DNA of 63,354 nucleotides, filler included, from Reclinomonas americana ATCC 50394 (taxonomy: Eukaryota): NCBI GenBank assembly GCA_048213135.1. It is 13 parts of 13 records of this genome, joined end to end, with 100 filler letters (N's around TTAATTAATTAA, not from the genome) between each part and the next. Parts side by side here need not be neighbours in the genome. Positions count along the whole stretch, not along the records: positions 28,569 to 41,868 come from AFZH01023952.1; 12 more parts are not named here. The stretch is one strand, 5' to 3'. Shown one piece after another: positions 5,829-58,218 of this stretch. The notes under the pieces were generated by a model, which was given only the letters and a program-made list of their open reading frames with translations, ran no database searches and was not told the DNA's origin. The position numbers and the translations under genes were made by a program. The first letter of the stretch is position 1. Every line of letters begins with the position of its first letter.

Positions 5829-5928
5829 NNNNNNNNNNNNNNNNNNNNNNNNNNNNNNNNNNNNNNNNNNNNTTAATTAATTAANNNNNNNNNNNNNNNN
5901 NNNNNNNNNNNNNNNNNNNNNNNNNNNN

Positions 5929-7150: not shown

Positions 7151-7181
<31 letters not shown>

Positions 7182-11054: not shown

Positions 11055-11367
11055 NNNNNNNNNNNNNNNNNNNNNNNNNNNNNNNNNNNNNNNNNNNNTT
11101 AATTAATTAANNNNNNNNNNNNNNNNNNNNNNNNNNNNNNNNNNNNNNNNNNNNGCGCCAATTGCTGTCGTTGGCATACCTCCAGCAATTGGACATTCGA
11201 TGTCACCATTAGGAGGTTTGCGCCATCCGACTGCGCGTCCCGCTCGCCTCGCCGGAAGCGAACTGAAGCTCCCAGCGCTTCGGGGCCGGAGCCCCGCGCC
11301 AGCTTGTATGGCGAGCAAGTCATCCCGCGAAGGCGTGATTGTGAACTGAGGAGTCAGGCGGCGTCAC

Positions 11368-15123: not shown

Positions 15124-15186
15124 CGCATGCGATCATGCTGCGCACGCTCCCCTGGCTCAAGGTGAAGCTGATGCTATCTTGACCTT

Positions 15187-16545: not shown

Positions 16546-16560
16546 CACGTCACCGCCAAG

Positions 16561-17853: not shown

Positions 17854-17854
17854 C

Positions 17855-21789: not shown

Positions 21790-22063
21790 CGTCGAGCCTT
21801 TTGCGCTCTCCGGATGCGCCCATAGCTCCGGGGCAGACCAACCCTTAGGCGATCAAGCTTAACCTCGCAACGCAAACAGGTGCGCCGTCTCCTCGCGATC
21901 CTTGAGGTTCTCGAGCCCCGAAGCTGGGTCGAAGCCGGCGCGAAGTGCGCCAGGGGGCAGCGCCCCCAAGCCCGCACACAGCAGCGCGCCCACATAGAAT
22001 GAAGTTTGAACGAGGGGCGCACAGCAGGCGCGCGAGGCGCCAGTCCATCTGTTGGCGCACGCA

Positions 22064-22954: not shown

Positions 22955-23117
22955 GGCCGCCTAGCCGGCCTTGGCGAGCAGCTGCCGCGCCGTCTGCGTC
23001 ACGGCGATGTCCGGTAAGGCGAAATTGGTCATCTGGCCCTCACTTGCAGGGTCAGCCTGACACGCGCCTCCGTCAATTGCGGTCGCCCCGCCTGGACGGT
23101 GCGCCCACCTGCGGGCG

Positions 23118-25103: not shown

Positions 25104-27046
25104 GACGCCGCCGGCGTGACATGACGAAGGGCCGAGACGAGGTAGCCCGGCAACCGCGCCAGCAGATCAGTCTTGGAAAAGGCGCCGCGAACGACCTTGT
25201 GTTCGAGGATTCCGGCCAGGTATTGGGCCGCTATGGCCTTCGACGCCCCTTGATCGAACAAGAGGTAGATACGGGTCGCCCGTTCGTCGGCTGGCAGCCC
25301 GGCCAAGGTCGCGCGATAAAGCTCAATGGCGGCGCGTAGCGTGGCCCGGGTGGATACCTGCGTTCCATCCGCCAGCGCCAAGCTTGCGGCGAGATAGACT
25401 TCTTCGGCCAAGCCATGGAAAGCCAGATCGTACTCGAAGGTCCATTCGTCAGCTACGAAGGTCTCGACCGATTGGCCCGAGGCGCGCGCGACAATCCGTG
25501 CGCGCTGCTGCGAGAGTTGCTCGCCTGGGAAGTCCGACTTCATGCGCCAGCGGCGCCTGTTTCTCGCCGGCGCGACACCCTGATCATCAAGAAGCCCACG
25601 CAGCTCGGGTGCGCAATCGGGCATGACGTCGAAATCGGTAATGCAGGCCACCGGCGTGCCGATCACGCCGGTGGCCGGATCGGCACGCTGGAATATTCGG
25701 GCGTAGCGCCCAAGACCTACCCCGCCCACGTTGACGATCGAAACGCCATGCTCGGTCAGGTCCAGGCCTACCAGCCGCGCGATCGTCGGGATGACGATAG
25801 CCTCGGCGTCGCCCTCGACGATCAGCACGCCGCGAGCGAAGAAGAGATTGGCCTTCGTGACGTCGAGGAAGCGTTGAAGAAATGCGTAGTCCCTGCGATC
25901 GAGGCGGGTGTGTCGCGGGCCCAAGGGAAAGGCCTTTCCGCCGCGCAGCAACACCAGCCGACTAAGATCGATGGCCGAGGCCAGGTTGGGACTGTGTGTC
26001 GTCAGCACGACCTGCAGCGGAACCTCGTCGGCCTGGGCCTCACGGCTTTGACGCGCGAGGAACTGGATCAGCCGCAGCTGTCGCTGAGGGTGGAGATGCG
26101 CCTCGGGCTCCTCGATGAGAAGAAACGGAAACCCTTCCCCCTCGTAGCGTAGCAGCAGGAGTTCTGTGGCTATGAACAGCAGGTTGTTCGAGCCCAGCCC
26201 TCTGGCCGGCGGCGGTTCCAGACGCCCTTCGTCTCGAAGATTGAGCTCCAATTTCTCCAGCAGTTGCCGCAAGCGGACGGCATTCTCCGCCGCTGCGCCG
26301 CCGACATCGATCTCGCCCCGCAGCCGATCACCAACAAAAGACAGCGCCTCAAGGTAGTCGGTGTTCAGGCGATCGCGCGCCTGACGCACGCCCTGGTGCT
26401 GACGAAGCAGATGGTTGGCGTAGTCGCCGATCCCCAGGACGCTGAGATTGGCCGGCTCCAGATCGTCGTCGTCGGCAAACCCCACCCCATGATCGGCGAC
26501 CTCCCGCGTATGTTGCAGGATCTGGGAAAGCCGCGAGCCTCGCCCTGCCGACAACGCCTGCTCGGCGTCGCGAAGAGGCCGAAGATAAGTTGCGCATAGG
26601 GCCTGACGCGCCTCGAATTCGAGCGGCGGCCCCTCCCCATCCGCGCCGGATCGGATTTCGGTCTGAATGAACCGGCGCGCGCCGCGTGACGTCGGCCACG
26701 CTCGCCAGGTCAAGCTGAGACTGGCGCGTCCATCGTCGTCATAGGTAAGGTGCTCTAGGAAGGAAGAGCGGTCAGCCGCGCTCAGATCGTCGAAGCGAAC
26801 GCGAATTCTCGCGTCCGTGGCGGCCGCTGCAGCACCAGGCGGCTGATGAAAATCACTGTCCGAGACACGGAGCGTTTCGAGGCCCCGCACACCCAGGACC
26901 AGCCGAAGCCCATCGACTATCGCCGTCTTGCCAGCGTCGTTTTCACCGACAATCGCGGTCAGCCCCGTTTCGAGCGGCAGATCGAGGGCTTGGCCCCCAG
27001 CCCCGAACGCTCGGAAGTTCTCGATCCTCAGCGATGAAAGCCGCAA
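25100..27046 (-). CDS. OLD-family ABC-ATPase/TOPRIM nuclease (GajA-like), 648 aa, TTG start
   Basis: IENFR, Walker A GENDAGKT, GLGSNNL, LLIEEPEAHLHP, TTHSP, TOPRIM VEGDAE and TDFD. Confidence 0.92.
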   Translation of the reverse strand: MRLSSLRIENFRAFGAGGQALDLPLETGLTAIVGENDAGKTAIVDGLRLVLGVRGLETLRVSDSDFHQPPGAAAAATDARIRVRFDDLSAADRSSFLEHLTYDDDGRASLSLTWRAWPTSRGARRFIQTEIRSGADGEGPPLEFEARQALCATYLRPLRDAEQALSAGRGSRLSQILQHTREVADHGVGFADDDDLEPANLSVLGIGDYANHLLRQHQGVRQARDRLNTDYLEALSFVGDRLRGEIDVGGAAAENAVRLRQLLEKLELNLRDEGRLEPPPARGLGSNNLLFIATELLLLRYEGEGFPFLLIEEPEAHLHPQRQLRLIQFLARQSREAQADEVPLQVVLTTHSPNLASAIDLSRLVLLRGGKAFPLGPRHTRLDRRDYAFLQRFLDVTKANLFFARGVLIVEGDAEAIVIPTIARLVGLDLTEHGVSIVNVGGVGLGRYARIFQRADPATGVIGTPVACITDFDVMPDCAPELRGLLDDQGVAPARNRRRWRMKSDFPGEQLSQQRARIVARASGQSVETFVADEWTFEYDLAFHGLAEEVYLAASLALADGTQVSTRATLRAAIELYRATLAGLPADERATRIYLLFDQGASKAIAAQYLAGILEHKVVRGAFSKTDLLARLPGYLVSALRHVTPAAS

Positions 27047-27423
27047 ATCTCGCCCCGTCTCGCGGCGATTCTACGGGTCGCCGTCCGGTAGCAAGGCTAT
27101 CCCGGACTCGTTTTCCATGCACGTCCGTCTTTTTAAGAAGTCCCCAAGACGAGGCTGGACCCAAACCGACGCAACCGACATCAGCAAAGAGTCAGGTCCG
27201 TTGGTCCTCGAGCCCGCCCCCTGGCCGCCCGCNNNNNNNNNNNNNNNNNNNNNNNNNNNNNNNNNNNNNNNNNNNNTTAATTAATTAANNNNNNNNNNNN
27301 NNNNNNNNNNNNNNNNNNNNNNNNNNNNNNNNCGTCTACGTCAAGGCTTGAGCCCGCTGCGGCGGTTCGGCTGATGGACAGGGGCCCGGCACGTCGCTAT
27401 CGACGGCGCCGGGGAGCCTGTTC

Positions 27424-27813
27424 TTGAGCGCAGCCAAGTCCATCAGAGCGAGATCCTGGGTCGCGATCATCGCGGCCTATGTGCTCGTGCTGCAGGGGCT
27501 GTTCGGCGCGGTCGTGTCCGGACAGAGCCTTGCACCGGCGCTGCTCGACCGCGCTACGCATCTCACTCTGTGCGCGCCTGGCTCTGAGAGCGTCCCGCTG
27601 CCGGGCGAGGAGCCTGCCCCGCATCTGCCGGCCTGCTGCCTGCTCGGCTGCGCCTGGATCGGCGCGGCCTATGCGCCGCCCGACCGGCCTGCGCTCCTCG
27701 AAGACGCCGAGCCCGGCGTCACGATCGTTGGCTTCGACGACCTGACCAAGCGGCCGCTACCGGGACAGGAACGGCTTGCCGCCCGCCCGAGAGGGCCTCC
27801 CGTCCAGACCTGA
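27424..27813 (+). CDS. DUF2946-like small membrane protein with Cys motif and C-terminal RGPP
   Basis: N-terminal hydrophobic helix (WVAIIAAYVLVLQGL), LC, CCLLGC and terminal ARPRGPP; lies upstream of a PepSY-TM gene. Confidence 0.75.
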   Translation: MSAAKSIRARSWVAIIAAYVLVLQGLFGAVVSGQSLAPALLDRATHLTLCAPGSESVPLPGEEPAPHLPACCLLGCAWIGAAYAPPDRPALLEDAEPGVTIVGFDDLTKRPLPGQERLAARPRGPPVQT

Positions 27814-27820
27814 CGCCGCT

Positions 27821-27839
27821 GCGGCCTCCGGGCCGCTTT
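27821..27839 (+). promoter_or_regulatory. GC hairpin just after the DUF2946 stop codon
   Basis: GCGGCC-TCCG-GGCCGC followed by TTT; only a short U tail, so a terminator role is uncertain. Confidence 0.3.
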
Positions 27840-27914
27840 CCGTGCAATGACCGAATGTCCCGCCAGCCAGTGCGCCAGCGGCATTTCGGCAGGTCCATAT
27901 CGGGAAATCCAAAC

Positions 27915-28468
27915 ATGACCGCTCACGCGGATATAAGCACGCGCGCCGACGCCGGCCGCGCCTTTGCTTTGTCGTCAGAATTCAAGGCCTTCATCGCAAG
28001 GCTGCACTTCTATGCCGGGCTGTTTGTCGGCCCGTTCATCCTGATCGCGGCGCTGACCGGCACGCTCTATGTGCTGACGCCCCAGATCGAGGGCCTGATC
28101 TATCGCGAGCAATTGACGGCAACGACGACGGGCGAGCCCGCCTCGCTCGCCGCCCAGGTCGAGGCCGCGCGCAAGCACATCGGCGAGGGGCCGCGCTTCT
28201 TTGCCATCCGCCCCGCACCAGCCGCGGACCGGACCACGCGCGTGATGTTCGCGCAGCCTGGCTTGGGGGATTCCGAGAGCCGGGCGATCTTCGTCGATCC
28301 GGTCTCGCTGGCAATCAAGGGCGACCTCATCGTCTACGGCACCAGCGGCATCCTGCCGTTCCGGACGCAGCTCGACTATCTCCACCGCAACCTGCTGCTC
28401 GGTGAGTTCGGCCGCAACTACAGCGAGCTGGCAGCGTCCTGGCTCTGGGCGGTGGTGCTCGGCGGCGT
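27915..28468 (+). CDS. PepSY-associated TM helix domain protein (3' truncated)
   Basis: RLHFYAGLFVGPFILIAALTGTLY, IFVDP, LHRNLLLGEFGR..ELAASW. Confidence 0.88.
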
Positions 28469-29023
28469 NNNNNNNNNNNNNNNNNNNNNNNNNNNNNNNN
28501 NNNNNNNNNNNNTTAATTAATTAANNNNNNNNNNNNNNNNNNNNNNNNNNNNNNNNNNNNNNNNNNNNGTCATGATCGTCGTCGCTGACGTAGCCGGAGC
28601 TTGACTTGGAGCCCATGATGATGATGTGTTGTTGTGGTTGTTGTAAAAGTTAAGAAAGTATAGTGTTGGGGGGAAGTTGTGTGCTCTCTGCACGTTCTGC
28701 TAAATGCTGACTGACGAAGCAACACGCGTGGACGGCACATATAAATAGAGGCAGGAATGTGCGAAAATAACTCTGAGCGATTCGGCCATGAAAGTGACAA
28801 CTATTATCGCCCAACCACCTCTCACAAGCCACGGCAGTTGTGTGCGACATCTATTCCCGTGTGTACACGAGTCTTCACTAGCGACAGTCAACAACAACAA
28901 CAACAACAACAACAATGGCCTCCTTTAAAGCAAAAGAAAAATCAATAGAAACACTGACAAACAGGCACGAAACTGACATACAGTGTGCATGCATGCAAGA
29001 GATAGACAGAGAAAGGAAGAGGG

Positions 29024-30002
29024 TCAGTGATGCTCACGGACATTGGTCTCGCCCTGCAACGCCTGCAGTGCCGCCTCCAATGCCGCATTCGCATCCTCAG
29101 TCACCATGTGACTGACACCGAGTGCCCTCTCGGCCTGCTCTGCAGCCACTCGCAAATGCCGCACCGCCTCGGCTGCAGCAGACACCGTGAGACCAACGCG
29201 AGAAAAAAAACGAAACGACGAGGTGCACCCCCCACACGCACAATTCTTGCCCGAGAGGCACAGCATCTGGCCGAGTTCTATCTTCACACGCAGCGTCTTC
29301 TCCGACGTGTCTCCCTCGCGCTTCCTCGACGCCTCCAGCGCCCTGCACGACGAAACCACGATAAGAACTCCGTCACACCTGCGCCGCGCAACGCGGATCG
29401 TGCCCGCACCTCGCCATCATCTCCTCGGCCTGATCAAACAAAAACTGCGCGGCAAACGCTCGCCCCAGCTCCAACACTGTCGATCGTCAGTTGCGCGTGG
29501 TACGTACGATGTTGCGAAAAAACACGACGTACAGACGCACCAGTGGCGATGACTTTCGGATCGTTGGCATTCAACACCGACTCACGCGTGACGAGACACT
29601 CGCGCAGCTTGTGCTCCGCCTCCTCCGCGTGCCCTGTAGCGCACCACGATCGATCCATTCAATGACATACGTAACAGAAACGCATCATATCATGACAATC
29701 GATCCACCACACCTGCTCTCCGCAACGCCACGCCCAGATCATGCAACGCCTGCAGCGTCTCCTCGTGATACCCTCCATGCACCTTTGTTCTCACCTCCAC
29801 AGTCTCCCGCCTGCATTCATTCACGTCACGCACGTGTTTGGCAGACAGCGATTGACGACAACACAAAGAAGACGCAACGCCATTCTGACTTCCTCTTCCA
29901 GTCGCGCCTACGTACGTCACACACAAGAGAGACAGAGAGAGAGCTCAAACACGAGCGCGCGAAATGTGTCATTCACATAGTGGCGATCGCAACCTTTTCC
30001 AT
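29024..30002 (-). CDS. Small TPR protein (kinesin-light-chain-type TPR repeats), multi-exon
   Basis: Spliced segments VRTKVHGGYHEETLQALHDLGVALRRAG, AEEAEHKLRECLVTRESVLNANDP and AERALGVSHMVT; ATG 30002 is followed by a donor at 29993. Confidence 0.7.
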
Positions 30003-30215
30003 GGCAAACGCATCGTCGGTGCGTGAGTACTTTCGACTGTGTGCACACCCCATTCGCTTACAAACGCGTACACACACGCACACGAGAAAACGATGACGAT
30101 TCGATCACTCTGATGCAATCAATCGATCACTCGTTCCTTCGCCTTCTCCCAACGCGCACTTCCACTTCCTTCCTCTTCACTCCACCAGTCACTGCCCACC
30201 AGTCACACACAAAAC

Positions 30216-31742
30216 ATGGCGATCCGTTGCGCTGCTGCTCTCTCCCACTCGTCACTCACTGTCTCACTCTGTCTCACTGTTCACTCTCACACAGGTGCAC
30301 AGTTTGAAAACAGCAGCGAGATTGGCGTCTTCTCCAAGCTCACCAATGCCTACTGCCTCGGTACTGTCTCAGCAAGAGAGGGCGAGAGAAAGTGTGTGTG
30401 TGCACATGAGCGGCACATCACGCTCACTCTTCTCCTCTTTGTGTTTGTGTGTGTGCAGTCGGACTGACGAGCTCGGCCAACTTTTACTCCATCTTCGAGG
30501 CGGAGCTGGCGGAACACATTCCCGTGGTCTACGCCACCATTCACGGAACAAAGATCATTGGTCGTCTGTGTGTGGGTGCGTTCTCTCTCCCCCCCCCCCA
30601 CTCAACCCTCTCTCCATCCCTCCACTCTCTCCGCACACATACACAACCTCTTGCATCTCCACTCCAGCGACTGACATTGCAATGTCCGTGGTGGTGTTAT
30701 TTTTGGCTCTCTCTCTCTCTCTCTGCAGGAAACAAGCATGGTTTGGTGGTGCCGAGCACGACCACCGATCAGGAGCTGCTGCATTTGCGTAACTCGCTGC
30801 CGGACTCGGTCGTTGTGCAGCGAGTCGAGGATCGATTGTCGGCACTGGGAAACTGCGTGGCGGCCAATGATCATGTGGCCCTGATTCACCACGAGCTCGA
30901 TCGGGTGTGTGTTTGGGAATGCCGATGTGCAGTTCAGCAGCTCCAGAGAGATGTGGCGATGCAGCTTCATCGTTCACTGCATGTTCCTGTCTCCGTTACC
31001 TCACATTCATTGTTCTCCTCCTTCACCGTCTCATTCTTCTTCTTGCTTCTGCTGCTTCTTCTTCCTCTCCTCCTTCTTCTTCTCTTTCCTCCTCCTTCTT
31101 CTTCTCTTTCCTCTTCTTCCTCTCCTTCCTCTCCTTCTCCTGCTTCTTCTCCACTCTGCCATCATCCTCCCTCTCTCATTTTCCTCTTCCACCATCACAT
31201 CCTCCTCCTTCTCCTTTTCCTCCTCCTCCTCCTTCGCCTCCCTCCCTCCCCTTCCTTCTCCCCCTTCTCCTCCCACTCACTCCCTCCTCCACCACCCTGC
31301 AGGAAACCGAGGAAATCATCGCCGACACACTGCGTGTGGAGACCTTCCGCCGTGACATTGCCGGCAACGCGCTGGTGGGATCCTACTGCGCATTCACCAA
31401 CAATGGCGGCATGGTGCACCCGAAGACACCGGTGGCCGAGCAGGACGAGTTGAGCCAGATGCTGCAGGTGCCGCTGGTGGCCGGCACGGTCAACCGAGGT
31501 AGCGATGTGCTCGGTGCCGGCATGGTGGTCAATGGTTTGGTGGCTTGCTATCTTCGCTTCACCACTTTGGTCTTCACTCACTCACATCAACGCACACGAC
31601 GGCAGACTGGTGCGCCTTCTGTGGTGTGGACACGACATCGACGGAGATTTCGGTGATTGAGAGCATCTTCAAGCTGCGCGACGCCAAGCCGCAGGCGATT
31701 GCGACGAGAATGCGCGACGCCCTCATTGACACGCTGACGTAA
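30216..31742 (+). CDS. EIF6: Eukaryotic translation initiation factor 6, multi-exon
   Basis: Spliced [82 protein letters not shown]. Confidence 0.97.
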
Positions 31743-31876
31743 TGAGGTTGGACACGCGCGGTCTGCGACAACGCATAGTAATGTTTGTTAGATGGGGCGC
31801 TGCGATTGTGCGGTGTTTGTATTGCGCAGTTAATGTGTTGAATGACGAATGGGGGCGGTGGGAAGGGGGTGGTCCA

Positions 31877-33319
31877 TTAGAGCGACGCCGACGGTAGTTC
31901 GCTGGGATGGCCGTCGTTGACGGCGACCCAGCCGTCGCCGGTAAAGGTGACCTCGTCGACCAGCAGCTGGCGCGGGTGGCCGCCGCCCATTTGGTTTTGG
32001 CGCCTGCGCACGTGATCAGTGGTGGTGAGCGTGGACGAGGTGTCAGGGGGATAGGGGGAGGCGCGCACCAGGCGTGATAGATCATGAAGTAGTCGCCGTC
32101 CTTTTGCACCACACTGCAGTGGCCGGGTCCCTGGAACAGGCCCATCATTGGCTGTGTGCGCGTCGACAGAATGGGATCGCCGCGTTTTACGTAGGGGCCC
32201 GTGACGGCTGACTGTGCTGTCAGCAAAGACGACACCGCAACGGGGCAGAGGAGGGGGGTGGACGCAACAAGAGGCACGAGCGACACCGACGGCGTATGAC
32301 ATGTCGGCGTATCCCGAGCCGCTGTAGAACAAGTAGCTGTGTGCGTGCGTATGCAAGCGTCAGCGACGGAATGCAGTGGACGGGGGGAAAGAGCACGACC
32401 GCTCGCAACTAGTAGCTGCCATGCGGCACAATCCATGGTCCCTCGACGACTCCGTGCTCCCACGACAGATCACTCTGCATCACACCGCAGAGTAAGAAGA
32501 GGAACAGCAATTCTCCTTTGCCTCGAGCTCTTTTGCCGCACCTGAATGAGCGGCTTCATCTGCGTGCCTGCGACAAAGGAGAGACCATTGGCCACCAGCG
32601 GCTGGATGTAGATGACCGAGGGCTTCTGCGGCCGTGCGCCGTTGCCGTCGGACTTGAAGATGAGGTAGTTCTGACCCTTGTCTTGAATGAACGAGGCGTC
32701 GATGAAGCTGCGCGCATCACCTGGTCAACCTTCCGCATGGAGGAGACAACCCGAGGAGGCACTACGACGCAACCCCATGGTCGTGTTGTGGATCAGCGGA
32801 TGGCCAATGTCCACGTACGGTCCCAGGGGCGACAAGCTGTTGGATCGCGCTGTACCGACACACAGCACACCGTCCTGCTTGTTGCGCGCGGTAAAGTACA
32901 CCACGTACTGGCCCGGCGACGGCGAGTGGATCTCCGGAGCCCAAAAGTCGCCACTGGCCCACGCCGGCAACTGCACGGGACCGTCGACACTGGGGAACAC
33001 GAATCCCTTGTGCTCCCAGTGCACGAGATCGGTGGAGACCAAGATCGGGAAAATGTCGGGACCGGCGCCCGAGAGGTTGCTGGTGGTCACGGCGTAGAAC
33101 ACACCGTTGACGTTGATCACCCCGGGGTCGGGACTGTTCTCGATAAACACCTGCGCATGAAGGAGAGAGTGTGTGTGAGTGTGTGAGTCTGTTGTCAACG
33201 CGTGCATGTGCATTGTTGTGACAACGCACGGGGTTGGTGAAGACGCCATGTGCAACGAGTGGCAGTGTGCACATGCAGAGTGTGATGGCGGCCACCACAA
33301 GCAGGCCACGCGAGTTCAT
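31877..33319 (-). CDS. Secreted glycoside hydrolase family 43 (five-bladed beta-propeller), multi-exon
   Basis: Signal peptide, FTNP|VF..SPDP (general base), STDLVHW, WAPEI, FIDA (pKa modulator), VVEGPWI (general acid), YLFYSG, GPGHCSV, IYHAW. Confidence 0.88.
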
Positions 33320-33401
33320 TGCACTCTCTCTTGATTCAAAAAAATAGCGAACTGAACACAATCGATGATGGACTGACGCGATGAATTCATCATTGTTGGT
33401 C

Positions 33402-35135
33402 TCACAAAAACAATCTGAGCGCTGACAAGAAAGAGGAGTGATGTGAGGCACTAAAGCACCACACAGCAGCCGCCCTTGGACTCTTCTGGCCCTGGCGACG
33501 GTGCACTGTCGGCTTGTGCGGACCGCAGAGCAGCTGTTGTTGTTGGAGGAGTGAGCAACTGTCATGCACAACTGTGGCATTCATGGCGACGCAACTTGTG
33601 CTCGGTGGTGTCATGGGCTCGGTGTGTGTTACGGGGACAGTCAGTGTGCTGGGTGAGAGAGGCATGGAGACGGGTCGGGCGCTCGCTGTGGAGCTTGGTC
33701 GACTGTCGGAGCCAGCCGCCGATGATTCTGGGTGCATGGAAAATAATCAGACAACATGCAGACACATCATGAACACACACGCACTTGCGCACACCTCCAG
33801 GATATGAAAGTCGTGAAGGTTCTCGTGGATCTTGCCGTTGTCGCACATTGGCCTCGAATTGTGCTGCCGGGGTGAGAGGTGAGCAACAGAGATGCATTCG
33901 CAATGGCGTGTAAAGGAGTCACACACACCCTGTGCTTCCCGCAGCACGGCTGCCTCGTCCACGGGTCTCTTGAACGTCTGTTCCTCTTCCGGAGTCAACC
34001 CTGCAAACAGCCGGTGCCGGTGAGCGATGCCGTCAACGGGGAGGTGTTGAGTGGGAGAGACAGACCTTCGCTGAGATACCGACTGATGATGGCCTTGATG
34101 GGGCGATCCTTTGGACACAAATCTAGTACACTGGAGAGCTCCGCCGTCGCCATTGCTCCATGTGCGATCAGCATGCCCACAATCTACACGCGGATCGTCC
34201 GTCAGTCAACAACAATCTCAATGACAGACGCGCACGAAACGCAACATTCGGATGCCCCCATCGCACGGCCTTGTACAGTGGCGATCGTTTTTGGCGATCG
34301 GGAAACGCAACCTGCCACCACACAACAACATTCACCATCACCACCAAATCACGCCCTCCGCCACACTCTGGCGACCACGCAACATCCGCGCCATGCTCAA
34401 TCAGCAGCTTGACAGTCGACTCACGCCCCTCCGTCACCGCCAAGTGCAACGGCGACAGCTGATTGCTGTTCTTGGTCGCCAGATTCACCTAACGCACAGA
34501 CGACGACCACGTATAAGCAGTCGTCCACTCGCTGCACTCAACAGTACACTGCCACTGCGCAACATCAACTCCATGCTTGAGCAACTCCAACAGCACTCCA
34601 TTCGTTCCACTATTCGCTGCATGATGCACCGCTGGTACACAAGGAGGAGAACGTTAGAGGAAGTCCATGACACGTACAGAGGAAGAGAGAGAGAGCAGAG
34701 CGAACCAGCCCATCCGCTCTTATCAAACGCGCTGACCTGTGGCCATGAATGAGTGTGAGGACAGAGACAGAGAGAGGGAGAGTGGAGTGGAGCGCAACAT
34801 TGATGCCACGCTGTAACAACAACTGCGTGCTCACAACGTCGCCGGTCTGCGCGGCCAAGTGCAACGCATTGCGCTTGCTCTGCTCATCGACCACATCCAC
34901 ATCTCCCGCTTGCGCCGACTCCAGCAGCGTCCGCACGTCCCCGTTGCGTCCCATGAACACCGCCTGCAACAGCGTCGGCCTTCGCGAGTGCCGCGGATCA
35001 CTGCCAGGAACGGCCGCTGAAGAGAGAGAAGAGAGAGAGAGATCGCGCCATGTCAGTCGCACACACACACACGTGCGCTTGCAGGCATTGTGCTCTCTCT
35101 TGCTCTCTGTGTGTGCGTGTTTATGCCTCACCCAT
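33402..35135 (-). CDS. Ankyrin-repeat protein, multi-exon (3' end uncertain)
   Basis: NALHLAAQTG, PLHHAANSG, SPLHLAVTEGRESTVKLLIEHGAD, SPLYKAVRWGH; putative ATG-G|GTGAGG at 35135. Confidence 0.75.
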
Positions 35136-35234
35136 GTTCTGTCTTGCTGCTTTGCGTACGTGTGTGCGTGAGTTGCGAAATGCTCGCGAGTGTGACTGTC
35201 ACAGTCATTGTCGGAGATCATCGCGCGCGCCATC

Positions 35235-37019
35235 ATGATTCACATGCAGACGTTTCTGCTGTGTTTCCTCTGCTTAGGGTACCTGTGTGCACGCGCCGCA
35301 CTCGCGCTCTTGCCTTGTCCTCACACACTCTCGCAGGATTTCCGGCTCATTGTTCATCCTTGTCAGCTATGTGGCAATGCACTGCTGTCTGCGGATACCC
35401 AAGCGCAAGGCCTCTGTGTCGCCTGTGGTGTTCTCATTAGCCATGTGCGACTTTCTCTCCGCAGTCAAGTTCGTGCTGTTGTGCTGCTGCTGCTGAAAGG
35501 CGCCTTTTGAGCGTGATCATCATGTGTGTGTCTATTAGTTGGATTCTGCAGGCGAGCTTCCGGGAGAGTTGTGTTGAGTTTGGATACGCGTCGGTGTTCT
35601 TCTCGATGAGTTCGTTCTTCTGGAGCTTGTCGGTGGCCATTGCGATTTACCGCGCAGTGGTGCTGCGCTCGGTGATCTCCGGCGCCTGGCTCATCTACTA
35701 TCATGTGATGAGCTGGGGAGTGCCGGGTGTGTTCATGGTGTCGCTCATTGGGACGCGGAGAATCGAGCACAGCACGGAGGGTGAGCAGTCACAGTCGCCG
35801 CTGTTGTCTATTCTGTCGCTCACGCGTGCGAGCAGGCTGCTGGTTCCCGACCAACGACATCGGGCAGCTGGCGTACTGGGTTGCGTTCACTCTCCTACCC
35901 GCACAGACTCGTGCGCAGTGTCTCACATGTAGCGCAGATTTTGCCGCTGGTGGGCGCGTGGGTCGCTGCGCTGGCGTTCTACTCGCTGACACTGGCGTTT
36001 GTGCGGCGCACATCGCTGCGACGCTCTGTGCGCTCCATCAACGTCCGCCTGTTGCTCTACGCGCTGGTGTTCTTGCCAACGGTGCTGCCTCTCTCCACTT
36101 GCCGTCGGTCGTCCTTGTTGTCTCACACGCGCGCGTGACCTGACAGACACTCCCCGATATCACCGTGTCCACGCTCGCCGTGTTTGATGTGTACGCACCA
36201 CGGTGGGTACGCGACGTGACAGTGTGTCTGGTGGCCTCGCGCGGGTTTGTTGCCTTCTCCCACATGCGTGTCTTGTGTGTGCGCAAAGTATTCTCACGCT
36301 CTCGATTCGCAGCTTCTTCAACGGTGTCGTGTTTGCCTTCAACGTGGACTCGGAGGGACGCATCAGTGCGTCTCCGTTCTCTTCGCGTTCAATCCACTCG
36401 TCCTCACTCTCCTGTCTTGTGTGCAGTGCGCAGCGTTCGTCGGTTCTTCGCCTGCTGGTGCTTGCGGAGAGAAAAGTACAAGCTGTACGGTGGACGAAGC
36501 GCCGGTTGTTGCGCGATTCTGTGCACCGAGCCGTCTGAATTCGGCGGTGCTGTGCCACTGATCGCGGAGAAGCCGCACGGTAACCACCCTCCGGGAACCC
36601 CGGTGTCCTCGCTGTCGCCGGCCCAGTCGGCCACGGCGTCGGGACGCCAGATTCCGTCGGTGCCTCCGCGATCGGTGCTCAGTGGTGGTGGCCAGTACGA
36701 CGCACTGCCGCCACCTGCGTCGCCGCGCTTTGTTTCCTCGTGGGAGAGCCAGCATCACCTGTCACGGTCGCATTCGGTGGCGTCGAACAGTCCGGGTCAT
36801 CGTGGCAGCATTGTCGGCACCGTCATTCGCATGCCGTCGCAGTTTGCGCCCACGCCCACCACTCGAGCCTCTGTCATCAACGTCGGCGGCGTCAGTGCCG
36901 CCTCCTCCAGTGTTGTGACGCCCTCTTCGTCTTTCGGCGGTGCCCACGCGGCACTCGAGGAGCGGAGACCACTCGCAGAGGATGACGAGGAGACAGGGAC
37001 CAGTGTGCATAGCACGTAG
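35235..37019 (+). CDS. 7-TM G-protein-coupled receptor, cAMP-receptor/GCR1-like, multi-exon
   Basis: Seven hydrophobic segments with GSLFIL, LAMCDFL, SFFWS..AIAIY, YYHVMSWG, GCW, RLLLY..VF and GFFNGVVF; Ser/Pro-rich tail. Confidence 0.8.
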
Positions 37020-37089
37020 CAGCTTTTTTGTGTTGAATGTATCATAATGGATTGTCTTGCCACCGTCCCACCGCAGCACACGCACAACC

Positions 37090-39020
37090 ATGTCGAGCGA
37101 GACAACAAGGACTGACGGCGGTGGTGCATCCTCCTCCTCCGCTGCATCACTCCGACTCGAGACACTCGCCGTCTCTTCGCGACACTGTCACGCTCCGGCA
37201 CACTCCGCTGCGCTGGAGGAGCTGGAGACAGCACCACCGAGACCACTCACCACACCCATCTACACGAGCTCCACGTGCGTGCAGCCACGCACAGGTGGTG
37301 GGGACCGATCGCGACTGACATGCATTCCCGCAGCTATCTGTTGGATGACAGCCACCACGCAACACTGGTGCAGAACGATGCGGCTGCTGGCACAGGCTCC
37401 AGCCCGTACTTTTACAGCCGTTGGGTGCGTCTGTGGTGGGGGGAGGATTGGAGAAATCCGTGTGTGTCTCATCAGCCCTCTACTCCGCAGGGAAATCCGA
37501 CGGCCGAGTCGGTGGCGAATCAGGTCTGCAGGCTGCGGCACTCACTCTCTGTTGCAGTGCGGTCGCTGATGTTTTATGCGTGTATGCCTCTGCCAAGATT
37601 GCCACGTTGGAGGGTGCATACGGCACTCATGTGACGGCCAGTGGCATGGCCGCCGTCAGCTCCGTACTGTTGACTGTTGAGTTGTCGTTGGTCTTGTGAA
37701 CCAAGTAACACGATCTCGAGCTGACAATGTCTGTGACGATCCAGTTTCTGAAGAGTGGCGACCATGCCATTGTCAGCTCTGCAGTTACGTGGCTGTGCCG
37801 TTTCCACGACGTTGCTGTGGCGTGATCGCTGACATGCATGGGTGCAGGTGTACAGCGCCACGCATGAGTTGTTCCGCGTGGTGCTGCCGGAGCACGGTGT
37901 GGAGACCACGTTTGTGGAGCAGACATCCGTGCAGAACTTTGTGGACGCCATGCGGCCCAACACGAGACTGGTGTACGGCGAGACGCCCGCCAATCCGACG
38001 ATGTCGATTCTGGTCTGCCGTACGCAGGAGAAAAATGTCGCAGTGCCGGGGGCTGATTTTCGTGTGCATCTCGCAGGATTTGAAGGCATTTGGTGCCCTG
38101 CAGGGTGTCGATGGAGGTAATTCGTGGTGTGTTCCTTGCCTTCCTGAATCACGTACTCACTCTCATCCTCGATCTCTGCAGCACCTCTCGTCAAGGTGGT
38201 CGATTCGACACAGGCGTCGCCTGTCAACCAACGACCACTGTTGCACGGCGTGGACGTGTCGGTGCACAGTGCCACCAAGTTGCGCTCGCCCCGCCGGCGA
38301 ATGACCATGTGCAGACATGCTGATGGTTCAGTGCTGCTTGCAGATACCTCGGCGGTCACTCGGACTTGCTCGGCGGCTGCATCTCCTGTCGAACCGAAGA
38401 GCAGTATCTCCGCCTCCGCAAGTCCATGCGCCTCTTTGGTGGCGTCTTGTCGCCATTTGATTGCTTCCTCTTGCGTTAAGTCGACCACCGCTTTGCTCGT
38501 CTCGTGCGACTCACGGATTACCACCGGCACAGAACGTGGTCTAAAGACGCTGCCGCTGCGCATCCACAAGCACAACGAGAACGCCATGCATCTGGCCCGC
38601 TTCCTGGCCGCCCATCCGAAAGTGGTGGTGGTGCACTACCCCGGCCTGGAGACGCATCCGCAACACGCAGTAGCAGCGGCGCAGATGGACGGTTCGACGT
38701 CGCCCCCCAACCTCCACTGTCAGTGAGTTGCTGAGTTGTGTGTGTCTGCAGGATTCGGCGGCATGGTGGCATTCGAGGTAGCGAATGGCTTCGAGGGTGG
38801 AAAGCACGTGCTCGAGAACGTGCGCGTCATACAACTGGCCGTCTCTCTCGGTGGCACCGAGTCCCTTATTCAACATCCGGCATCGATGACACACGGCAGT
38901 GTGCCACCGGCGGCGCGTGCTGCGGCGGGGATCACCGACGGACTCCTGCGCTTCTCTGTGGGTCTTGAGCATGTTGACGACCTGCAGGCTGACTTGGAGC
39001 AGGCGCTGGCGTCGGTGTGA
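37090..39020 (+). CDS. PLP-dependent Cys/Met metabolism enzyme (cystathionine/methionine gamma-lyase family), multi-exon
   Basis: YSRWGNPT, ASGMAA, ETPANPT, VDST, HSATKYLGGHSD (PLP lysine), [37 protein letters not shown]. Confidence 0.95.
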
Positions 39021-39071
39021 GTGGCCAAAAGAGACGACGAGAAGAGGTGGCGGCGGCAAAAAAAAGAGAGT

Positions 39072-39158
39072 GAAGAAGCCGACGGTCGGCCACTCGCTTC
39101 GTCCTGATCCTCAACGCAGCCGCAAAGACGAGGGCGGCCAACTCAGGCGGGCTTCTTC
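39072..39158 (-). ncRNA. Putative small hairpin ncRNA, divergent paralogue of the array unit
   Basis: Same terminal stem (GAAGAAGCC...GGCUUCUUC) as the array with a different interior; CTCAAG at -30, ACCCACAA at -63..-70 and a T8 run downstream. Confidence 0.55.
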
Positions 39159-39386
39159 GGTGGTGAATAGGGACGGCAGCTGCAGATCTTGAGTTGCGTG
39201 TGGCAGAACAAGAAGCGAGATTGTGGGTTCGTTGTCGAAACTGGAATAATTCCTTTGTTCGAGAATGTTGCACCTCAGTGTGGGTCTGTTCCAGCAGCAG
39301 TTGTCACCAATCCCGATAGTGGTAAGCACACATGCTGTACTCGAGTGACAAAAGAGAGAGGGAGGGAGGAAGCAAAAAAGAAAAGC

Positions 39387-41860
39387 GAAGAAGCCGCCGG
39401 TCTGCCTCACGAACTCGCCACTGACACCGAAATGCAGTGGACGAGACTCGGAAGAACAGACACAGATAGACTTCTTCGATCTGGAGATGGTGTCAAGCGT
39501 GCCATACTTGAGTATTGCACAGTTAGTTCGGTGAGTGAACTTGTGGGTGAGGAGGGAGACTGCATGCTCAATGAGAGAGAGATTCTTGTTTCGGTATTTC
39601 ATCTGCTCACATCAGCAACACAGTGTGGATCAGTCCAGCAGCAGTAGTCACCGGTCCAGATGGTAGTGCTCGTGCTGCACTTGAGAGACAAAAGAAAGAG
39701 AGAGGGAGAGAGGAAGCAAAAAAGAAAAGTGAAGAAGCCGCCGGTCTGCCTCACGAACTCGCCACTGACACCGAAATGCAGTGGACGAAACTCGGAAGAA
39801 CAGACACAGACAGACTTCTTCGATCTGGAGATGATGCTGAGCATGCTGTACTTGAGTGCAGCACAGATCCTGGTGAGTGAGCTTGTGGGTGAGGAGGGAG
39901 ACTGCATGCTCAGAGAGAGAGATTCTTGTTCGGTATTTCATTGTCTTCACACTGGCAACGTTAACACAGTGTGGATCAGTCCAGCAACAGTTGTCACCGA
40001 TCCAGATGGTGGTAAGCACACATGCTGTACCTGAGTGGCAAAAGGAAGAGAGAGGGAGAGCAAAAAAGAAGCGAAGAAGCCGCCGGTCAGCCTCACGAAC
40101 CCGCCGCTGACACCGAAATGCAGTGGACGAAACTCGGAAGGACAGACACAGACAGACTTCTTCGACCTGGAGGTGGTGTCGAGCATGCTGTACTTGAGTA
40201 CAGCACAATGGTCCTTCCGAGTGAGCTTGTGGGTGAGGAGAGAGACTGCATGTTCAGAGAGAGAGAGATTCTTGTTCGGTATTTCATTTTGTTCACATCA
40301 GCAACACAGTGCGGAACAGTCCAGCAGCAGTTGTCACCGATCCACATGATGGCGCACATGCTGCACTCGAGCAGCAAAAGGAAAGAGAGAGAAAAACAAA
40401 AAAGAAAAGCGAAGAAGCCGCCGGCCTGCCTCACGAACCCGCCACTGACACCGAAATGCAGTGGACGAGACTCGGAAGAACAGACACAGACGGACTTCTT
40501 CGACCTGGAGGTGGTGTCGAGCGTGCCATACTTGAGTACAGCACAATGGTCCTTCCGAGTGAGCTTGTGGGTGAGGAGAGAGACTGCATGCTCACACAGA
40601 GAGAGAGATTCTTGTTTCGGTATTTCATTTGTTCACATTGGCAACACAGTGTGGATCAGTCCAGCAGCAGTTACCGTCAATCCAGTTGATGGTTCACATG
40701 CTGTACTTGAGTGACAAAAGTAAGAGAGAAAGAGGGAGATGAAGGAAAAAAGGATGAAGAAGCCGCCGGCCTGCCTCACGAGCTCGCCACTGACACCGAA
40801 ATGCAGTGGACGAGACTCGGAAGAACAGACACAGACGGACTTCTTCGATGTGGAGATGGTGTCGAGCATGCTGCACTTGAGCACGGTATAGTGATCCTGG
40901 TGAGTGAGCTTGTGGGTGAGGAGGGAGACTGCATGCTCACACAGAGAGAGAGAGATTCTTGTTTCGGTATTTCATTTGTTCACACTGGCAACACAGTGTG
41001 CAACAGTCCAGCAGCAGTTGTCTCCAATCCTAACGGTGGCAAGCGATGCTCGAGCGACAAAAGGAAGAGAGAGGGGGAGCAAAAAAGAAGTGAAGAAGCC
41101 GCCGGTCTGCCTCACGAACTCGCCACTGACACCGAAATGCAATGGACGAAACTCGGAAGAACAGACACAGACGAACTTCTTCGGCCTGGAGATGGTGTCG
41201 AGCATGCCATACTTGAGCGTACTATAATGATCCTGGAGGGTGAGCTTGTGGGTGAGAGGGAGACTGCATGCTCAAAGAGAGAGAGATTCTTGTTTCGGTA
41301 TTTCGTTTGTTCACACTGGCAACGCAGTGTGGATCTCTCCAGCAGCAGTTGTCTTCAATCCAGATGGTGGTAGCACACATGCTGTACCTGAGTGGCAAAA
41401 GGAAGAGAGAGGGAGAGAGAGGAGCAAAAAAGCGAAGAAGCCGCCGGCCTGTCTCACGAACTCGCCACTGACACCGAAATGCAGTGGACGAGACTCGAAA
41501 GAACAGACACAGACAGACTTCTTCGATGTGGAGACTGTATCGAGCATGCTATACTTGGGTGCAGCACGGCGGGCTCGGTGGTTGAGCTTGTGGGTGAGGA
41601 GAGAGACTGCATGCTCAGAGAGAGAGAGAGATTCTTGTTTTGGTATTTCATTTGTTCACACTGGCAACACAGTGTGAATCAGTCCAGCAGCAGTTGTCAC
41701 CGATCCAGATAGTGGTGCACATGCTGCACTCGAGCAGCAAAAAGAAATAGAAAGAAAGCAAAAAAAAGTGAAGAAGCCGCCGGCCAGCCTCACGAACTCG
41801 CCACTGACACCGAAATGCAGTGGACGAGACTCGGAAGAACAGACACAGACGGACTTCTTC
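39387..41860 (-). ncRNA. Cluster of eight putative 91-nt hairpin ncRNA genes (39387-39477, 39731-39821, 40073-40163, 40411-40501, 40756-40846, 41092-41182, 41434-41524, 41770-41860)
   Basis: The 91-nt core has no indels and folds into a long bulged hairpin with G-U pairs on the minus strand. It has fixed-distance upstream motifs and an adjacent T-run, while the flanks tolerate indels. Confidence 0.6.
39541..39548 (-). promoter_or_regulatory. ACCCACAA upstream element (DUSE/USE-like); also at 39221, 39883, 40227, 40565, 40910, 41246, 41588 (GCCCACAA at 42024)
   Basis: Lies 62-71 nt upstream of each hairpin 5' end, including the divergent copy. Matches the WCCCAYAA element known ~63 nt upstream of Dictyostelium small RNA genes. 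Confidence 0.6.
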
Positions 41861-42280
41861 GATCTGGANNNNNNNNNNNNNNNNNNNNNNNNNNNNNNNN
41901 NNNNNNNNNNNNTTAATTAATTAANNNNNNNNNNNNNNNNNNNNNNNNNNNNNNNNNNNNNNNNNNNNGACGGTATCGAGCATGCTGTGCTTGAGCACAG
42001 CACGGTGATCGTGGTGCGTGTGCTTGTGGGCGAGGAGAGAGACTGCATGCTCACAGAGAGAGAGAGAGATTCTTGTTTCGGTATTTCATATGGTCGCATT
42101 GGCAGCACAGTGTGGAGCAGTCCAGCAACACGGGTTGTCTCCACTGATGGTGGCACACATGCCTACTTATATATAACAAATGAAGGAGCGAGCGCGCGCG
42201 AGAGAGAGCAGGAAGTGACCATGACGCGCACCGTTGGCGTCCTCACGTCCTCTCGCTTGCAAACTGTTGCGTAAAATCTG

Positions 42281-43562
42281 ATGGGAGTGTCGTCATCGTA
42301 CCCTCGGCGCCCTCGAGGAGTGACTGCAGTCCTTGCGTATGAGTTCGGGGCGATCAAGGCACACTTGGAGGCGCAGCGCGTTGTGCAGATTGCGCTCTCC
42401 CCTCAGCAAACAGTTGCGTGTGTTCTCGCGATCGCTGTTTGTTTTTGCCAGTGTTGCACGTGAACATATGCAAGCACGCGCTCACCACTTGACGTACACG
42501 CCTTTCGTGCAGGACGAGGAGTCGCTGTACCTCTTCAAAGGAGGTTTTGAGCTTCACGCACGAGTGCCAGTTGAGTTCCTCGGCGCTATCTTCGACTTGC
42601 ATGTGAACGGCAACTTGCGGTGGTCCAGTCGCAGTGGCGTGTACAGGGGCTGCGGAATCTTTGAGATAGGACTGCTCCCTGTGACGTCTGGCAACGGAAC
42701 CGTCACCATTGGATCCCGTCAGATCATCATGCGACTTGGTGACGGACCGTCGGCCCTGCGATATGCCGTACGTTTCGCGAATCTCTCAAGGTTGTGGTGG
42801 CCTTGTCTCCCGAGCGCTGTGCTTGCGTCTTCCAGTGCATTTGACCCACTTGGATAGGTGCCAAGCGTCCGTGGACGAGAGCCCTTCGCGATCGACTCCA
42901 CCGACGTCTGATCGCGTTGCAGTTGTTGACGGTGCAAATGGGTCAGTTTCTTTGACCACCTCTCACCTTCGCTGTCACTCACTGCCTGTTTGTTTTCAGT
43001 GCGGATTCTTCACCAGCGGCTGCTGAGCTCACATCCTATGTTATGTTAAGCGCACAGAGTGATTTCGCTGAGTGCGGGCGAGAGTTTCACCGCACCGCGG
43101 CCGCCGGTGCAGTTCAGATCTGTTCAGACAAATGCAAATCTCCTCCGCAAACATGGGAGGACTGGCCTGGGATTGGCACCAATTGCAAGACTCAACGTTA
43201 ATCCCTATTCTTGTATGGCTGTCTCCTTCAGTTTGCTGACCCGCTGCGGTCCGCGGCATGCACGCGCAGTGCAAAATCTGAGGATCCGGATGAATTCAAG
43301 GCAGCGGGCACGTCCTGCTGAACCAGAAGACATACAACCCGCGGACCTGATTAGTTTGGTGCTCGTCTTGCTTGTTGCCTCATCGCACCATGCTCTCACA
43401 CGCAGCCCGGCAGCATTGTTCGAAGAAACCGGCTACAACGTCAGCGAATTCGCGGAACTTCTCCGCCGAGAAAACGTGACGTACTGGAGCATGGTGGCCA
43501 ATCAGGTGATGGCGTGGACGCTGGTCGACTACCAGGCGTCGTCCTTCGTGGAACCGATGTGA
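42281..43562 (+). CDS. Possible multi-exon hypothetical protein
   Basis: ATG 42281, a GTTGCG donor at 42413 joining in phase to a long ORF after gtgcag(42512), and further ORF pieces to 43562; no recognisable motif. Confidence 0.3.
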
Positions 43563-57784: not shown

Positions 57785-57973
57785 TTGTCGTGATGAGACA
57801 CATAAGTGTACGGATCGGCGAGAGCATGCACCATCATCTCTCCGGTAATTAGTCTCCGCATGAATGCAAGCGTGAATGATTCACCAACATTCAATGAACC
57901 AAGCTCGACGGCAAAAAACACACTACACAAAACACAAGAGAGATGAATGAATTCAAGCAAGGGTCGCCGTCCA

Positions 57974-58218
57974 TTAGCGATTCTCCAACTCGGCGGCCTC
58001 GCGTGCCCGTTTGCGATGCATGAACATCGCAATGATGGCCGGGAAGAAGAGCACAACGTAAATGGCGACAGCAATCTGTACGTGCGTGAGGCGAGTGAGA
58101 CAAAGGGCGGTGCGAGTGGGGTGAATACACTGCGAGTGACGCACAAACATGGACTTGACAGGCTTGTCAAAGTCAGTCACGTCGTGCTCCTTCAGCGAGT
58201 GGCGCAGAGTGGGGTTGC
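57974..58218 (-). CDS. 3' exons of an unidentified protein with C-terminal TM helix
   Basis: cacag|...DFDKPVKSMF|gtgcgt...tacag|IAVAIYVVLFFPAIIAMFMHRKR...stop. Confidence 0.35.

Follow-up and report, generated by a model that had tools for sequence, protein, structure and literature searches.

A tandem array of small hairpin-forming units was found on the minus strand of one contig (AFZH01023952.1) of Reclinomonas americana ATCC 50394 (GCA_048213135.1). The window analysed, that is, the whole stretch of 63,354 bases, consists of 13 short contigs joined by spacers of the form N44-TTAATTAATTAA-N44. It is judged rather probable that the array represents a new small-RNA family with a CCCAYA/SNAPc promoter, RNA polymerase III (Pol III) as its probable polymerase, tandem organization, a constant 7–9-bp terminal stem with an oligo-U tail, and an exchangeable body; such a family would be either a counterpart of Class I RNAs, Y RNAs, and snaR or a protist short-hairpin RNA (shRNA) array. 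The best explanation in detail, held tentatively and at something short of even confidence, is that the units are self-contained genes, probably read by Pol III, whose product is a stable RNA with paired ends, acting in a ribonucleoprotein (RNP) or as the ligand of a protein that binds double-stranded RNA, which would resemble Class I RNAs, Y RNAs, and snaR without being a member of any of them. All conclusions on the array RNA rest on sequence from one locus.

Tandem Repeats Finder detected a single array at 39276–41868, with a period of 342, 7.6 copies, 83% matches, and 4% indels. As assembled, the array covers 39058–41868 (−) and comprises eight canonical units of ~340 bp and one diverged edge unit, with the hairpin copies lying head to tail (at least nine in all). 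The contig that bears it spans 28569–41868 (GC content 0.564), and the following contig (41969–44509) resumes the 342-bp unit in register beyond the spacer at 41869–41968. This finding indicated that the spacer is a gap inside the array and that nine copies is therefore a lower bound. The continuation in the following contig (41969–42170, minus strand) supplies the promoter part for the core ending at 41860, and repeat similarity stops near 42165.

The eight canonical cores, each extending from its start to +90, aligned over 91 columns with no gap column, consistent with the indel-free 91-nt core per ~340-bp unit described in the initial annotation, and the core sequence quoted there was letter-for-letter the consensus of the eight. 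The minus strand of the core folds into a single hairpin of 38 pairs, in which the terminal GAAGAAG pairs with CUUCUUC and the loop is UUCG. The stem is interrupted by ~8 single-base bulges or mismatches, seven of which are U, confirming the long minus-strand hairpin with several single-U bulges that had been read by eye. Moreover, both the minimum-free-energy and the centroid structures were single hairpins with interruptions of only 1–2 nt. Fold stability was evaluated as z-scores against dinucleotide shuffles. The minus-strand cores ranged from −37.2 to −51.8 kcal/mol (z −3.08 to −7.52), and the plus strand was weaker in all eight copies (−25.6 to −39.7 kcal/mol, z −2.80 to −6.13). The individual cores, all on the minus strand, are copy 1 (39387–39477; 107.1 bits with the covariance model of the cores; −46.8 kcal/mol, z −6.38), copy 2 (39731–39821; −44 kcal/mol, z −6.07), copy 3, which is the most mutated and has two broken pairs (40073–40163; 100.8 bits; −37.2 kcal/mol, z −3.08), copy 4 (40411–40501; −48.5 kcal/mol, z −6.97), copy 5 (40756–40846; 110.7 bits; −51.8 kcal/mol, z −7.52), copy 6 (41092–41182; −41.2 kcal/mol, z −5.07), copy 7 (41434–41524), and copy 8 (41770–41860), the upstream region of which lies beyond the scaffold gap.

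The variation among the canonical copies was then compared with the fold. Twenty-eight of the 38 core pairs are invariant, seven carry one-sided changes in which pairing is kept by G-U, three are disrupted in part of the copies, and a double change is seen in none; counting the pairs over the eight copies therefore returned the same tally as the initial annotation, which had listed about seven sites that preserve pairing and three that disrupt it. Core positions 1–8, 42–57, and 78–91 are invariant, and the mid-arms vary in a wobble-tolerant manner, the arms having 10 variable positions that include 73, 75, and 77. In total, 78 of the 91 core columns are invariant and none contains a gap, compared with 125 invariant columns of 249 and 29 gap columns in the upstream sequence (Fisher p = 1e-9). 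In addition, G-U pairs that form only on the minus strand were found at four fixed and seven polymorphic positions, versus two positions that favour the plus strand (binomial p = 0.022). As these positions would be A-C mismatches on the plus strand, the tally of 11 versus 2 bears on the choice of strand. The asymmetry is not expected of a decaying DNA palindrome, and a strand-biased mutation process could contribute to it.

Each hairpin is preceded by conserved boxes on the same strand. The box ACCCACAA is present upstream of seven of the eight canonical cores, at −71 to −64 in six units and at −69 to −62 in one, and the eighth unit, across the gap, has GCCCACAA in its place in the next contig (42024–42031); the original placement of the box at about −64 to −71 was accordingly retained. 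This upstream sequence element (USE)-type box lies at 39541–39548 (−) in copy 1, where it occupies −71 to −64, and at 39883–39890, 40227–40234, 40565–40572, 40910–40917, 41246–41253, and 41588–41595 (all minus strand) in the other canonical units. Similarly, the element reported at −30 to −35, CTCAAG, was recovered at −35 to −30 in six of the seven cores whose upstream sequence lies in the same contig, namely at 39507–39512 (−) for copy 1 and at 39851–39856, 40193–40198, 40531–40536, 40876–40881, and 41212–41217 (−) for the others. Copy 7 has CCCAAG in this position (41554–41559, minus strand), and the following contig provides CTCAAG for the eighth core (41990–41995, minus strand), so that seven of the eight canonical cores carry the element as first described. 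Downstream, a T6–T8 run follows all nine copies, beginning 3–13 nt past the stem, in line with the T-run previously placed within a few nucleotides of the core. In copy 1, the run is T4-C-T6 (39374–39384, minus strand) and is a putative Pol III terminator; the other canonical copies have their runs at 39718–39728, 40062–40067, 40398–40408, 40746–40751, 41081–41086, 41426–41431, and 41760–41767 (−). The pattern GAAGAAG-N65-90-CTTCTTC occurred nine times against 0.00 expected, and CCCACAA-N24-32-CTCAAG eight times against 0.03 expected.

Two further upstream blocks are conserved. One contains the USE, is found in every unit at approximately −58 to −93 (40559–40594, minus strand, in copy 4), and has a mean pairwise identity of 0.89–0.94. 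The other is the 26-nt block GAAATACCGAAACAAGAATCTCTCTC at approximately −100 to −126 (40601–40626, minus strand), which is identical in all seven complete units and thereby exceeds the core in conservation. A recognisable remnant of GAAATACCGAAACAAGAATCTCTCTC is also present in the diverged unit, and the block may be a distal promoter element. Furthermore, CTCAAG sits within the semi-palindromic motif TGCTGTACTYGAGTRCAGCA, of which every unit over 39478–41769 has two copies, one around the −30 box and one directly after the T-run, and each copy of this motif is followed by a ACCAYCATCTSSAGATCG-like sequence. The repeated TGCTGTACTYGAGTRCAGCA-ACCAYCATCTSSAGATCG stretch looks like an old internal duplication of ~50 nt, and TGCTGTACTYGAGTRCAGCA itself may be the binding site of a dimeric factor.

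The argument that the unit has been under selection comes largely from the diverged ninth copy, an 87-nt hairpin at the downstream edge of the array (39072–39158, minus strand) that lies beyond the range of the initial annotation. It shares the first and last nine bases with the canonical cores, and hence the same 9-bp terminal stem, and its interior is mostly different. Its ACCCACAA is located at 39221–39228 (−), that is, at −70 to −63, shifted by 1 nt relative to the canonical units; CTCAAG stands at the canonical distance of −35 to −30 (39188–39193, minus strand), and a T8 run begins 6 nt past the stem (39058–39065, minus strand). The copy folds as a hairpin of −39 kcal/mol (z −2.49 on the minus strand and z −1.36 on the plus strand). 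A covariance model built from the eight canonical cores only was searched against the whole window with filters off. The diverged copy scored 34.6 bits (E = 2.7e-6), and nothing past the nine copies was detected in the window (next best 15.8 bits, E = 0.17).

To quantify what the diverged unit has kept, 28 test positions were set from the canonical units, made up of the USE, the −30 box, and the two 7-nt stretches that pair in the terminal stem, and seven canonical units were aligned with it. The diverged copy retains 26–28 of the 28 test positions, versus 51–57% identity at the remaining 183 positions of the alignment. A by-eye comparison of the canonical stems with the diverged one showed a double change at one pair (U-A to G-C) as well as several wobble transitions. 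The kept islands, 6–8 nt each, are too short and too precisely placed for patches of gene conversion, which would make selection on a promoter–RNA–terminator unit the simplest account. The same comparison points to a modular design, in which the terminal stem is constant and the body varies.

With respect to promoter class, ACCCACAA agrees at every position with the Dictyostelium upstream sequence element (DUSE; [AT]CCCA[CT]AA), which lies ~60 nt upstream of Dictyostelium noncoding RNA (ncRNA) genes of both the Pol III and the RNA polymerase II (Pol II) type (PMC7919456). The initial annotation was thus correct, according to this source, in stating that the element marks Dictyostelium ncRNA genes. 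Its account of how widely the motif is spread stood for plants and Dictyostelium but was too narrow, given that the class also includes green algae, Blastocystis, and Plasmodiophora (PMC8287931). The consensus sequences in Table 1 of that article are ACCCAYAW in Micromonas, ACCCATAA in Auxenochlorella, AACCCRTAA in Blastocystis, GNCCCAYW in Plasmodiophora, and TCCCAWCATC in Galdieria, and the USE is described there as the site in type 3 promoters to which SNAPc binds. CCCAYA-type USEs occur in many lineages; therefore, the box marks a small nuclear RNA (snRNA)-type promoter and not a lineage. A type 3, SNAPc-dependent promoter is expected to have a USE or PSE at about −55 to −70 and a TATA-like element near −30; the array units have a USE-type box at the right place and a conserved −30 element, without a clear TATA box.

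The minus strand was chosen as the transcribed strand because the orientation of the USE, the T-runs (9/9), the better fold (8/8 canonical copies and the diverged copy), and the G-U bias all agree. A Pol III gene requires at least four T on the coding strand directly past the RNA, and the T6–T8 run past the stem in 9/9 copies provides them, whereas a Pol II snRNA gene can do without such a run. If the unit is indeed a gene, the odds that Pol III transcribes it are about even. The proposal of an amplified, probably Pol III-transcribed ncRNA class therefore held in part: gene-like anatomy, use of one strand, and separation from known families are consistent with it, with Pol III as a candidate polymerase.

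Known identities were sought across the window and the array. The Rfam scan at the gathering threshold gave no match in the whole window, U6, U2, and 7SL genes included, and at E ≤ 10 only a 15.3-bit chance match to a long noncoding RNA was obtained in 38800–42400. ARAGORN found no tRNA gene in the whole window, and the tRNA or tRNA-derived element was rejected for want of a cloverleaf. Both scans agree with the earlier statement that motifs of tRNA, 5S, U-snRNA, signal recognition particle, Y, vault, and Class I RNAs are lacking. A coding exon was also rejected: the six frames contain 17–27 stops each over the array, no spacer frame is open in all units, and indels shift the frames. Array open reading frames (ORFs) had no Pfam match with E below 0.05. 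A known Rfam family and a coding exon had been named at the outset as findings that would speak against a new RNA class, and neither was found over the array.

Searches for relatives were likewise negative. A 24-nt core pattern had no match in the metagenome contigs, prokaryote genome contigs, and viral contigs searched. A composite pattern of USE, −30 box, and GAAGAAG hit 17 metagenome loci, none of which (0/17) had the closing CTTCTTC or a comparable hairpin, and these hits were attributed to chance. RNAalifold on both strands of the spacer gave no convincing conserved structure of a second RNA (covariation +0.58 and +0.29), and single-sequence folds of the spacer had z-scores from −2.5 to +0.6. 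Small-RNA targets were sought in the ~45-kb eukaryotic part of the window, where no core 20-mer had a near-complementary site (≤3 mismatches), which is weak evidence. A lexical search of the open-access literature, which cannot prove absence, returned no description of the family or of its tandem organization with an external promoter.

Several observations weigh against reading the units as RNA genes. Copies of one repeat are not independent events, and the eight canonical copies are recent duplicates, so that their common features amount roughly to one observation; the argument for selection hangs largely on the one diverged copy. No double compensatory change occurs within the canonical copies, and other spacer blocks match the core in conservation, which is therefore not specific to the RNA. 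The T-run is the leading edge of a ~45-nt pyrimidine tract, and CT-rich tracts are common in the host genome. The −30 element, CTCAAGTA, is conserved but is not a TATA box. The second TGCTGTACTYGAGTRCAGCA lies downstream of the T-run, where no promoter role for the core is possible, and the motif alone is therefore no proof of a promoter. In plants, a USE-to-start distance of 54–55 bp specifies Pol III and one of 66–67 bp specifies Pol II (bioRxiv 10.1101/2022.07.06.498962); the 62–64 nt between the USE and the hairpin base in the array are closer to the Pol II than to the Pol III spacing.

Some of these points are shared by an inert or merely structural satellite, that is, a recently amplified 340-bp unit with an imperfect palindrome and a "promoter" and "terminator" that arose by chance. 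The tandem period of ~340 bp with 83% identical units, an assembly collapsed or broken at the array, spacer blocks equal to the core in conservation, the lack of compensatory double changes in the canonical copies, a T-run inside a low-complexity pyrimidine tract, and the absence of relatives in the searched metagenome, prokaryote, and viral contigs are all consistent with such a satellite. It is nevertheless considered unlikely: the four islands of 6–8 nt in the diverged copy are kept at 26–28 of 28 positions amid ~55% identity and do not have the length or placement of gene-conversion patches; the G-U asymmetry, USE orientation, and T-run pick the same strand; and the core is free of indels compared with 29 gap columns in the spacer. 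An equally doubtful explanation is that the hairpin serves as a natural precursor of the shRNA or pre-miRNA-like kind: Pol III would transcribe it from the USE promoter, it would be exported in minihelix form, and Dicer would cleave it to small RNAs of ~21–24 nt. Tandem hairpin clusters are typical of microRNA (miRNA) families, the 38-bp stem is long and very stable with single-base bulges only and a small loop, and its lower 22 bp, with three asymmetric bulges, would be borderline acceptable as a miRNA duplex. Hairpin genes with a USE and a poly-T run also have a precedent in the interface-induced MIRNA loci of Cuscuta campestris, for which such a route has been proposed (bioRxiv 10.1101/2022.07.06.498962). 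However, the pattern of conservation is the reverse of that in a miRNA gene, which has a fixed arm and a drifting loop: no change is seen in the apical 16 nt (42–57) or in the terminal 8 bp, 10 positions differ within the arms, and the variable positions 73, 75, and 77 fall where the 3p seed would be. The diverged copy has the terminal stem in common but neither arm, and the failure to find a near-complementary target in the ~45 kb of eukaryotic sequence points, weakly, in the same direction. The pre-miRNA role put forward in the initial annotation is thus a poor fit, with the apical region and terminal stem invariant while the arms vary, and nothing in the analysis supports the guide-RNA role suggested alongside it.

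Two explanations that place the units in other kinds of transcript were regarded as less probable still. Hairpins could be cut from a long Pol II transcript, either a polycistronic cluster or mirtron-like introns, in which case the boxes of each unit would not be promoters. Tandem hairpin clusters within long precursors are known in animals. Downstream of each hairpin on the minus strand come a pyrimidine tract and, after it, CAG or AAG, which resembles a 3′ splice region. This origin is very unlikely, given that a separate USE lies at a constant distance in every unit, the diverged copy included; that T6–T8 right past the stem fits Pol III but would serve no purpose in a Pol II precursor; and that neither a conserved 5′ splice site ahead of the hairpin on the minus strand nor an exon-like open frame between hairpins was found. 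The spliced-leader (SL) RNA of a trans-splicing lineage likewise comes from tandem ~100-nt genes with snRNA-type promoters and T-run ends, and the array matches it in tandem organization, small RNA size, upstream USE, and T-run; an unpaired GU at 31–32 is followed 13 nt on by AUUUCGG, one mismatch from an Sm site. An SL RNA is nonetheless highly improbable here, as the would-be leader (1–30) differs between copies at positions 9, 10, 11, 23, and 27 and is nearly all replaced in the diverged copy, the two ends of the RNA pair fully with each other, in contrast to known SL RNAs, and neither an AG|GUA-type donor nor a match to an Rfam SL family was detected.

The invariant ends and apical region, the wobble-tolerant arms, and a diverged copy that keeps only the terminal stem argue for a structural RNA and not a miRNA gene; on these grounds, a diced precursor appears less likely than a stable RNA. 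In the mechanism proposed for a stable RNA, each ~340-bp unit would be an autonomous small-RNA gene read from the minus strand. Its SNAPc-dependent snRNA-type promoter would fire at or just before the G of GAAGAAG, and RNA polymerase III would most likely halt in the T-run. The predicted product is a 94–104-nt RNA with a 3′ oligo-U tail, whose paired ends and 3′ overhang would make up a "minihelix". An end of this kind is a classic La substrate and is exported like Y RNAs and pre-miRNAs, and the end of the array RNA would suit both La binding and exportin-5-type export. The exportin-5 minihelix is also mentioned in a review of Y RNAs (PMC4726728). More speculatively, the RNA may be recognised at its ends, and perhaps at its loop, in analogy to Class I RNA, Y RNA, or snaR, and tandem amplification may serve a high output. 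Precedents by analogy would be the hairpin genes with USE and poly-T in Cuscuta and the tandem Pol III hairpin RNA genes of humans (snaR).

The contig 28569–41868 is eukaryotic nuclear DNA. It contains an eIF6 gene split by introns (Pfam PF01912) as well as fragments encoding a GH43 hydrolase, an ankyrin protein, a cAMP-receptor-like seven-transmembrane (7TM) protein, and a Cys/Met pyridoxal-phosphate (PLP) enzyme. The eIF6 gene (30100–31740, plus strand) has at least five coding pieces, and one intron of ~380 nt is nearly pure CT-rich low-complexity sequence. The top identity of an eIF6 exon among the 120 best matches listed was 78%, which indicates that the host lineage is poorly sampled. 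The array region is flanked by the GH43 glycoside hydrolase fragment (32728–33315, minus strand) and by the Cys/Met PLP-enzyme exon (38148–38723, plus strand). The latter has a best identity of 42% with mostly bacterial or metagenomic matches, which hints at a gene of bacterial ancestry in the host eukaryote.

Elsewhere in the window, positions 1–9602 (three contigs, plus strand) encode DUF908, DUF913, UBM repeats, and HECT in this order, as pieces of one HUWE1/Tom1-type E3 ligase gene. As these ordered pieces run over consecutive contigs, the contigs follow scaffold order in the window, with gaps where the spacers are placed. The contigs 11155–27232 and 27333–28468 (GC content 0.65–0.68) are of bacterial type among eukaryotic contigs, and 12.3 kb of this sequence (14918–27232) is 99% identical to a bacterial genome (G001); this region is therefore contamination or the result of a mixed assembly and not part of the eukaryote. 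A search of G001 with the array gave no match. In the bacterial-type region there is also an ORF of 1251 aa with a SIR2-like domain and a UvrD-type helicase, a combination reminiscent of defence systems. Furthermore, ORFs at 58993–62761 (−) have a weak NACHT match, pentapeptide repeats, and many WD40 repeats on the same strand, and the protein may be NLR-like or TEP1-like, judging from weak sub-threshold matches to the TEP1 beta-propeller. An open frame of 786 aa without a Pfam match at 55819–58176 (−) shows very strong GC skew (0.43) as well as AT skew and is probably repetitive or low-complexity sequence.

If the array RNA is made, it would constitute a new, abundant small-RNA family without detectable relatives from a poorly sampled eukaryote. 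The very old CCCAYA-type snRNA promoter would then have been co-opted once more for a lineage-specific hairpin RNA, the examples so far being dictyostelid Class I RNAs, the telomerase RNA of plants and ciliates, and the trans-species miRNAs of Cuscuta. A constant stem with a variable body would ease the search for further family members. If the RNA is not made, the array is a caution that a satellite can mimic a full promoter–RNA–terminator unit.

The array RNA was compared with four known systems. The Class I RNAs of Dictyostelium, as described, have an unpaired 11-nt motif adjoining the 5′ half of the stem, which the array cores lack. With this motif taken as CCUUACAGCAA, a search allowing ≤3 mismatches gave 92 matches in the window, none of them inside a core. 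The described Class I RNAs are also 42–65 nt long (a few 82–85 nt) with a short stem only and end in CUGU, whereas the array RNA is 91 nt long, is paired almost throughout, and ends in CUUCUUC. The identity with Class I RNA was rejected on account of the core's excess length, its pairing throughout, and the lack of the 11-nt motif in the cores. The likeness nonetheless extends to several features given in PMC7919456, namely an [AT]CCCA[CT]AA motif ~60 nt before the start, ends that form a conserved terminal stem around a variable body, a 5′ end of the G/AAG type, a downstream T-run, and many gene copies. Class I RNAs are reported there to be restricted to Dictyostelia, and the word "tandem" occurs 0 times in the main text of that article, in contrast to the tandem genes of the array.

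Y RNAs and nematode stem-bulge RNAs (sbRNAs) resemble the array RNA in their length of ~100 nt, a conserved stem formed by the paired 5′ and 3′ ends, a La-binding 3′ oligo-U tail (putative here), and clustered genes each with a Pol III promoter. A 7-bp terminal helix followed by a single bulged pyrimidine is a further likeness according to PMC4726728. However, in Y RNAs the lower stem is separated from the upper one by a large internal loop that varies, and the array RNA is one continuous hairpin. In addition, the Ro60 site as described in PMC4726728 combines a bulged C, a 3-nt bulge opposite, and conserved sequence, whereas the array RNA has a bulged U8 and no 3-nt bulge. The identity with Y RNA was rejected for the lack of a large internal loop and of a Ro60-type bulge pair, and no Y RNA covariance match was obtained at E ≤ 10 in 38800–42400 (4227 Rfam models, assumed to include Y_RNA).

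The USE-driven MIRNA loci of Cuscuta are also hairpin genes with a snRNA-type USE upstream and T-runs of ≥6 directly downstream, and they have been read as Pol III units. Their USE, as described, is the 10-nt plant element located ~55 nt from the start, compared with a spacing of 62–64 nt in the array, and their transcripts start ~40 nt before the Dicer cut, whereas the array start would be the hairpin base. The available text of the preprint (bioRxiv 10.1101/2022.07.06.498962) describes no tandem arrangement, in contrast to the tandem units of the array, and mature small RNAs have been demonstrated for the Cuscuta loci, whereas the array RNA is predicted from its sequence. The human snaR is a highly structured Pol III RNA of ~117 nt with tandem-repeat genes, bound through double-stranded-RNA-binding motifs, and its family is young and fast-evolving, which was counted as a likeness (PMC2094060). 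It differs in its intragenic Alu-derived promoter and 5.3-kb units, versus an external promoter and a 340-bp unit in the array, and, as described, it is hominid-specific and has no sequence relation to the array RNA. The array RNA thus fails at least one defining feature each of the Class I RNAs, the Y RNAs and sbRNAs, snaR, and the Cuscuta MIRNA loci and is placed in none of these groups; the kind to which it belongs, a small structured RNA gene with a snRNA-type promoter, is already known.

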